5,990 nucleotides of DNA from a virus (Duplodnaviria; Heunggongvirae; Uroviricota; Caudoviricetes): the IMG/VR virus record IMGVR_UViG_2529292747_000021, positions 1 through 5,990 of that record; one strand, written 5' to 3'. The notes beneath the pieces were generated by a model, which saw nothing but the letters and a program-made list of their open reading frames with translations, had not been told where the DNA came from and made no database searches. Both the position numbers and the translations under genes were made by a program. The first letter of the stretch is position 1. Each line of letters starts with the position of its first letter. This document shows positions 4,139 through 4,190 of the stretch, one piece after another.

Positions 4139-4190
4139 CGGTTTAGTTTTTACTTGACTTAAGTTTAATGTTTATTAAACTAAAAATACC
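4139..4190 (+). promoter_or_regulatory. Second operator-bearing promoter (pL-like) upstream of the ydfA-like operon
   Basis: GTTTAGTTTT at 4141-4150 and GTTTAATGTTT at 4163-4173 resemble the GTTTAGTG operator repeats of the divergent region. -35 TTGACT at 4154-4159, 16-nt spacer, -10 TAAACT at 4176-4181. GTTTATTAAAC (4170-4180) is the reverse complement of GTTTAATAAAC at 3145-3155. Confidence 0.45.

Follow-up and report, generated by a model that had tools for sequence, protein, structure and literature searches.

Segment 4139-4190 of a CP-933P-type prophage as the probable early-left promoter-operator PL933P: operators, module boundary, and conservation among PaaR2 relatives

Segment 4139-4190 of the window (the whole 5,990-nt stretch of DNA analyzed here) is very probably the early-left promoter-operator, PL933P with its OL operators, of a lambdoid immunity region of the CP-933P type. 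The feature itself is already known: it is PL933P with OL1-3, described by Jurenas et al. 2021 (mBio 12:e02947-21; PMC8630535). What we add to the 2021 paper is comparative, namely, a mosaic boundary at +1, co-variation of operators and repressor in four immunity types, and conservation of the arrangement in distant relatives of PaaR2.

Gene content and sequence kinship mark the window as a CP-933P-type immunity region, from a lambda-like cryptic prophage, with the following features:

652-1392, minus strand: DnaC-like gene (ORF listing and annotated genomes)
1399-2376, minus strand: O-like replication gene (ORF listing and annotated genomes)
2384-2809, minus strand: ydaT (100% nucleotide identity to O157:H7 strain 7636)
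2806-3108, minus strand: ydaS, Cro analogue and second PL933P repressor (100% identical to the O157:H7 gene; published repression)
3109-3205, no strand: divergent OR region, 97 bp (100% identical to O157:H7 strain 7636)
3206-3577, plus strand: paaR2, CI-analogue repressor (100% identical to the O157:H7 gene; published PL933P repressor)
3598-3789, plus strand: paaA2 (100% nucleotide identity to O157:H7 strain 7636)
3791-4069, plus strand: parE2 (100% nucleotide identity to O157:H7 strain 7636)
4139-4190, plus strand: candidate promoter-operator segment, between parE2 and ydfA
4186-4358, plus strand: leftward transcript leader, common to prophages of several immunity types
4359-4514, plus strand: ydfA, DUF1391, one of the operon's first genes (ORF listing, Pfam)
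4516-4644, plus strand: ydfB, one of the operon's first genes (ORF listing)
4656-5194, plus strand: two ORFs of 129 aa and 50 aa, the first without a Pfam match
5232-5417, minus strand: gene for a small zinc-binding protein of the ECs_2282 family, between ydfB and DicF
5754-5805, plus strand: DicF small RNA (Rfam RF00039, 76.9 bits, E = 2.8e-16), presumed to be made from the distal part of the operon

The block from ydaT to parE2 and segment 4139-4190 are base-for-base the same as the locus of O157:H7 strain 7636, and positions 4060-4348 match that strain save for one indel. Comparison with the O157:H7 locus also places the ATG of dicB 1 base beyond the end of the window. A megablast search of 5,426 complete E. 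coli genomes returned no end-to-end match to the window (the best reach 81-88% coverage at 93.5-98.9% identity), and the window is therefore a mosaic relative of CP-933P, the cryptic prophage of E. coli O157:H7 EDL933 that is called Sp12 in Sakai. The early-left operon reads as itself mosaic: O157 strain 7636 is without ydfA and ydfB, and the window carries both from ~4349 on. Positions 4656-5417 hold two ORFs and the minus-strand zinc-protein gene where Qin has ydfC, and this stretch differs from O157 strain 7636 too. A perfect YdaT box, TTGATTTTCATGAATCAA, lies at the ydaS/ydaT junction (2799-2816), the site of the published PRE933P; the published YdaT consensus is TTGATT-N6-AATCAA. Five tandem TTTGACGGGTCAAC-like repeats with a 15-nt period occupy 1937-2026, inside the O-like replication gene, whose interior is the usual place of lambdoid origin iterons.

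Within segment 4139-4190, the motifs named by the first-pass annotation are all present where it had put them (GTTTAGTTTT at 4141-4150, TTGACT at 4154-4159, and GTTTAATGTTT at 4163-4173), and the architecture that it had proposed for both this segment and the divergent region's minus-strand promoter is borne out: the two promoters have identical hexamers, and the composite pattern occurs only at these two places. A consensus scan finds TTGACT-16 nt-TAAACT on the plus strand at 4154-4181 and TTGACT-18 nt-TAAACT on the minus strand at 3166-3137, in the divergent region. The elements of the two regions are as follows:

3119-3136, 3138-3155, and 3177-3194, no strand: OR operators (the 97-bp region is the fragment footprinted by PaaR2 and YdaS)
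-35 at 3166-3161 and -10 at 3142-3137, minus strand: PR933P, within 3109-3205 together with PRM933P
4070-4187, plus strand: fragment cloned as PL933P ahead of gfp (primers exact; ~100-fold repressible)
4088-4134, plus strand: hairpin between the parE2 stop and the operators (inverted repeat I2, 22-nt arms, imperfect)
4124-4141, no strand: weak third repeat, GTTTGTTATGTCCCGCGG, as read from the sequence alone
4141-4158, no strand: operator repeat GTTTAGTTTTTACTTGAC over the -35 (GTTTAGT word; family D2)
4154-4159, plus strand: -35 hexamer TTGACT, the same as the PR933P -35 (3166-3161); TT(G/T)ACN is kept in relatives
4163-4180, no strand: operator GTTTAATGTTTATTAAAC, which fills the spacer and reaches over the -10 (16/18 identical to the OR 18-mer at 3138-3155)
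4176-4181, plus strand: -10 hexamer TAAACT, also the outer operator half-site (consensus scan; family conservation)
4187-4189, plus strand: predicted transcription start (6-8 nt past the -10 hexamer; homology breakpoint)

Two of the operators resembling OR1-3 are clear and a third is weak. The repeat at 4141-4158 has 81% identity to the OR repeat 3114-3134, with which it forms direct-repeat family D2, and the operator at 4163-4180 has perfect 7-nt arms (GTTTAAT/ATTAAAC); they probably correspond to the published OL2 and OL1, respectively, a numbering that we infer. An unguided repeat search also recovers a local palindrome, I7, at 4159-4184, with 11-nt arms and 4 nt between them, spanning the spacer and the -10. 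The repeat at 4124-4141 is a candidate for the published OL3, an uncertain assignment; its right half differs among close relatives at 4133, 4135, 4139, and 4140. Among O157, STEC388, and phage Evi, a small sample, substitutions fall at these four positions and at 4153. The GTTTAGT word, TTGACT, GTTTAATGTTTATTAAACT, and the 4163-4180 operator are invariant in the same three, a number small enough that the invariance lends weak support. The spacer is 16 nt in the window versus 17-18 nt in relatives. Two other sites, a minus-strand promoter-like one at 4114-4087 and a terminator-like one at 4212-4194, were set aside as chance consensus matches with no supporting evidence.

The published work on CP-933P names its leftward promoter PL933P, ascribes to it operators OL1-3 similar to those of OR, and reports that its -35 and -10 elements are identical to those of PR933P (PMC8630535). 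A PL933P-gfp fusion is repressed ~100-fold by PaaR2 or YdaS, either alone, whereas YdaT has no effect on it (regulators were plasmid-borne and arabinose-induced in these assays; PMC8630535). The earlier suggestion that the segment is an OL-like second operator set under the same repressor thus agrees with PL933P/OL1-3 and with its repression by PaaR2 or YdaS. Both proteins bind and footprint the 97-bp divergent region, with its 18-bp repeats of half-site consensus GTTTAGTAA; the EMSA and footprints were made on this OR fragment and not on OL, and the 5′ RACE primers in Table S3 target only paaR2 and ydaS (PMC8630535). The same paper places PL933P "upstream of the RAE2 locus" in the main text but in "a downstream RAE2 region" in the legend of its Fig. 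2. Here, the primers decide: F-PL-SacI equals 4070-4090 on the plus strand and R-PL-BamHI equals 4166-4187 on the minus strand, both exactly, and the PL933P fragment is therefore window 4070-4187, directed toward ydfA and including the whole promoter.

We scanned one genome per species and recovered 27 loci encoding PaaR2 relatives (43-76% identity), from genera that include Photorhabdus, Xenorhabdus, Yersinia, Enterobacter, Raoultella, Morganella, and Massilia. An explicit pattern ([N]TTTA-N4-10, TT(G/T)ACN, a 15-19-nt spacer with (G/A/T)TTTA, and TANNNT), paired with a shuffle control, replaced a noisy search for 8-mers shared between OR and the rest of each locus. The design of the window, in which a GTTTA repeat, a TTGAC-like -35, a second GTTTA repeat, and a TAAACT -10 follow one another, is found in 19 of the 27 loci as well as in the window itself, making 20 matches versus 0.52 ± 0.64 in total in block-shuffled loci (although the match in locus L012 may be spurious). 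All matches share the strand of the repressor and lie downstream, 469-2,269 nt from the start of its gene. The -10 reads TAAACT in the window and in 17 loci, or 18 of the 20 matches, and a [G/A]TTTA-N8 block equivalent to 4141-4158 is present in 19 PaaR2-family loci.

Two of these loci bear on the history of the region. In Xenorhabdus ehlersii (locus L009, 2501-3180), a PaaR2 homologue of 123 aa and 49% identity has ydaS- and ydaT-like neighbours, and in the ORF listing nothing of ≥35 aa separates the repressor gene from the PL-type promoter. This layout is consistent with a later insertion of paaA2-parE2; the authors of the 2021 paper had the idea that these two genes were inserted into an immunity region (PMC8630535). 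In further Xenorhabdus and Photorhabdus loci, the promoter is about as far from the start of the repressor (ORFs were listed in L009 only). In an uncultured Erwinia MAG (locus L023, 2477-3142), the first 58 residues of the repressor are 76% identical to PaaR2, its C terminus is a Peptidase_S24 domain (E = 9.6e-29), and GTTTAGT operators occur both at OR and downstream of the repressor gene. PaaR2 has no Pfam match, the S24 autocleavage domain included, and its authors likewise describe it as being without that domain (PMC8630535); the Erwinia fusion therefore suggests that PaaR2 belongs to a CI-like family, as a version without the autocleavage domain.

Expression of the genes from ydfA to DicF and dicB could instead depend mainly on read-through from the paaR2-paaA2-parE2 operon (from PRM or PRE), with 4139-4190 acting as a looping anchor or a roadblock, which we consider unlikely. 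The two operons are co-directional and only ~120 nt apart, and PaaR2 octamers have been reported and looping raised (PMC8630535), all of which would suit such an arrangement. Between the operons, the 4088-4134 hairpin has a predicted RNA fold of -24 kcal/mol (z = -5.28; 0/200 shuffles as stable) and could, by analogy with lambda t_imm, be a terminator or a 3′ stabilizer of the paaR2-paaA2-parE2 mRNA; no U-run follows directly after its stem, such that termination may be incomplete. However, the 4070-4187 fragment by itself drives gfp and is ~100-fold repressible (PMC8630535); with such activity in the fragment alone, read-through cannot be the sole source of the transcript. The full -35/-10 pair is also kept in the 19 distant loci, in the Xenorhabdus locus the promoter follows the repressor gene without an intervening ORF of ≥35 aa, and in Qin the homologous position is that of the sole promoter found for DicF (PMC10448788). 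Read-through and a promoter of the operon's own are not mutually exclusive, and the former may be an additional source.

A resemblance to operators and promoters might also arise by chance in AT-rich intergenic DNA such as this, the more so with a half-site as short as GTTTA(A/G)T, but the counts make it hardly credible that the segment is without operator or promoter function. GTTTART occurs eight times in the window, against 1.69 ± 1.30 expected (0/200 shuffles reach eight), and seven of the eight sites lie inside 3119-3183 or 4141-4180. Sites matching the 18-mer GTTTAGTGTTTAATAAAC with ≤3 mismatches are found only at 3138, 3177, and 4163 (0.01 expected), and the composite CTTGACTTAA-N(2-7)-GTTTATTAAAC only at 3167-3145 on the minus strand and 4153-4180 on the plus strand (0.00 expected). 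An unguided repeat search of 3100-4200 leads to the same operator sites, which make up its top direct families D1 and D2 and inverted pairs I1 and I3, the last including a perfect 12-nt match, TTAAGTCAAGTA/TACTTGACTTAA. The published reporter data (PMC8630535) contradict a chance reading as well, as do an architecture kept across genera and a core that is invariant in close relatives while its flanks vary. Binding of the sites by the PaaA2-ParE2 complex rather than by PaaR2 and YdaS, in the manner of classical type II toxin-antitoxin autoregulation, would fit their place next to the toxin-antitoxin genes but is most improbable, given that the 2021 paper detects no DNA-binding motif in PaaA2, that repression is obtained with PaaR2 or YdaS alone (both PMC8630535), and that the Xenorhabdus locus keeps the operator/promoter design with no ORF of ≥35 aa between repressor and promoter.

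As an early-left promoter-operator, the segment would work as follows. A sigma-70 promoter, TTGACT-16 nt-TAAACT, is directed away from parE2. Over it lie 18-bp pseudo-palindromes of the GTTTA(G/A)T operator family, to which the operators of the paaR2/ydaS divergent region also belong; the one at 4141-4158 covers the -35, and the one at 4163-4180 fills the spacer and contains the -10. PaaR2, the CI analogue, and YdaS, the Cro analogue, would occupy these operators and block RNA polymerase; direct binding of OL by both is suggested by operator identity, and repression would be by occlusion of the polymerase. Once repression is lifted, transcription would start near 4188 and run through the shared leader into ydfA and ydfB. 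The transcript probably continues to DicF and dicB, by analogy with the dicBp operon of Qin, because of that precedent, the position of DicF at 5754-5805 with dicB after it, and a plus strand on which no terminator was detected. The DicF of Qin is a processing product of the transcript from dicBp, which starts upstream of ydfA (PMC10448788). A simple scan found no terminator-like site on the plus strand in 4180-5990 (although note that it missed DicF's own terminator too), and the minus-strand gene at 5232-5417, standing between ydfB and DicF, counts against continuity of the operon. Candidate early-left functions are ydfA, ydfB, and DicF in the window and dicB after it; an exonuclease gene follows in the O157 relative, and we recognized no N-like gene in the window. 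For the ORFs downstream of PL933P, no function was assignable in the original description (PMC8630535). More speculatively, OL (~4160) and OR (~3150), ~1 kb apart, might be bridged by an octameric PaaR2 loop as in lambda, which is conceivable because PaaR2 forms octamers.

The homology of the segment to other prophages breaks at the predicted start of transcription. Query 4070-4360 matches 3,761 complete E. coli genomes by megablast, and its upstream part is covered in just 593; 30 E. coli records were sampled evenly, and in 24 of them the alignment starts at query 112-127 (window 4181-4196), at the -10/+1 junction. In K-12, the match is to prophage Rac, downstream of racR, with homology from ATACCA (window 4186), and the homology with Rac, Qin, and pPE4 sets in no more than a few bases from the predicted +1. 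From a breakpoint at -10/+1 it follows that the operator/promoter travels with the repressor and that the transcribed leader is common property. Such a division, with operator and promoter travelling with the repressor and the leader held in common, is what classically defines a lambdoid immunity module. In the sampled records, and in agreement with the Rac and pPE4 alignments, the segment belongs to an exchangeable immunity module bounded at the early-left start.

The leader (4186-4358) is kept mostly at ~88-97% identity in prophages of at least four immunity types and at 75% in phage pPE4, and it is present without a paaR2-type operator in ~3,000 complete E. coli genomes. Its predicted fold is no better than that of shuffles (z = +1.4), and it matches no Rfam family. 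An antiterminator of the put type (a two-stem RNA of ~70 nt directly after PL) was considered and rejected in view of these two results and of the lack of likeness between the leader and HK022 putL. The leader contains a 22-codon ORF, MNMTAGFNFNNYAAGFCSATRR (4274-4342), preceded by GAGG at a distance of a few bases. Its copy in Rac has an in-frame 6-nt indel, and that of phage pPE4 has lost the first ATG, which cuts the frame to 6 codons; coding status, judged from these alignments, is doubtful. Outside cryptic prophages, Escherichia phage Evi (locus L033; LR597642.1, 24332-25476) carries the paaR2-paaA2 region with PL/OL at 96% identity, such that the paaR2 immunity type is not confined to cryptic prophages. 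After PL/OL, Evi has different early-left genes, kil included.

Each immunity type has its own operator words, which occur at both the divergent region and the leftward promoter:

paaR2 type (the window): words GTTTA(G/A)T; promoter TTGACT-16-TAAACT
racR type (Rac; locus L001): words TTAGGC-N3-GCCTA(T/A); promoter TTGACA-17-TATAGT
dicA type (Qin; locus L003): words TTAG(T/C)...(A/G)CTAA; promoter TTGACC, then TAATCT
pPE4 ("DicA") type (locus L036): words of the CTCACG/CGTGAG type; promoter TTGACA

When the 7-mers of each OR are compared with those of each leftward promoter, the pairs from the same type share 15, 16, 6, and 3 (paaR2, racR, dicA, and pPE4, respectively) and the pairs from different types 0-3. 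In K-12 Rac, downstream of racR (L001, 2430-2500), TTGACA-17-TATAGT is flanked and overlapped by two operator sites, TTAGGC-ATA-GCCTAT and TTAGGC-ATT-ACCTAT, the first of which fits the published RacR consensus exactly (PMC9638921). That paper treats only the racR/ydaS intergenic operators, and ydaG is absent from its text. In Qin, the leftward operator words are of the same type as those of the dicC/dicA region; both intergenic regions have three operators each, and DicA represses dicBp (Ragunathan et al. 2023, PMC10448788).

The PL element matters in that it decides between silence and expression of the early-left genes, among them, presumably, those for the FtsZ-targeting small RNA DicF and for DicB, which inhibits division. 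PL is under the control of the paaR2/ydaS switch, which has been reported as bistable in CP-933P (PMC8630535); this would explain how such toxic genes stay off and suggests that they may fire in rare cells. O157:H7 strains have several copies of dicF in different prophages (PMC5069750), each presumably under a different immunity repressor, and PL933P would be the control point for the copy of the CP-933P type. A broader proposal, to which we give even weight for and against, has two parts: the bistable PaaR2/YdaS switch may act through PL to turn on DicF and DicB, regulators of cell division and virulence, in part of the cell population, tying an immunity region that bears toxin-antitoxin genes to the control of host division, and a -10 TAAACT that is also an operator half-site may be an ancient solution common to PaaR2-like repressors, S24 fusions included, in prophages of gamma- and betaproteobacteria.

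Among known systems, PL933P of CP-933P is the same element as that of the window, with exact primers, identity to O157:H7, and -35 and -10 elements equal to those of PR933P; the difference lies around it, the window being a mosaic relative with ydfA and ydfB from ~4349 on, which are absent in O157 strain 7636. The racR-(ydaG-ydaF-kilR) region of Rac has the same leader from +1 and, like the window, an operator pair that flanks and overlaps the promoter, but its operators are those of RacR (TTAGGC-N3-GCCTA(T/A)). The dicBp promoter of Qin, known since the 1980s (Bejar et al. 1988, cited in PMC10448788), lies just past the repressor gene and ahead of ydfA-ydfB-...-dicF-dicB in the same orientation; its operators (for DicA/DicC) are common to the divergent repressor/cro region, as in the window, and the end of its leader and ydfA are homologous. 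Qin differs in its repressor, DicA, and in its operator words, with almost no shared 7-mers; its repressor and promoter are not separated by toxin-antitoxin genes, and its leader is much shorter than that of the window.

The authors of the 2021 paper themselves drew the comparison with OL/PL of lambda (PMC8630535). The window differs from lambda in several respects: PaaR2, unlike CI, has no S24 autocleavage domain; no nut site was recognized; OL and OR are ~1 kb apart versus ~2.3-2.4 kb in lambda; and the operators are 18-bp GTTTAGT-type repeats of mixed direct and inverted symmetry. The likeness lies in a second set of CI-/Cro-type operators beyond the repressor operon: in the window, they are found past its 3′ end and on the same strand, have the specificity of OR, and lie over both the -35 and the -10 of a promoter that transcribes away from the repressor. 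Accessory genes stand between repressor and PL in both cases (rexAB in lambda and paaA2-parE2 in the window), and in lambda and the window alike, the immunity-specific module ends at about +1.
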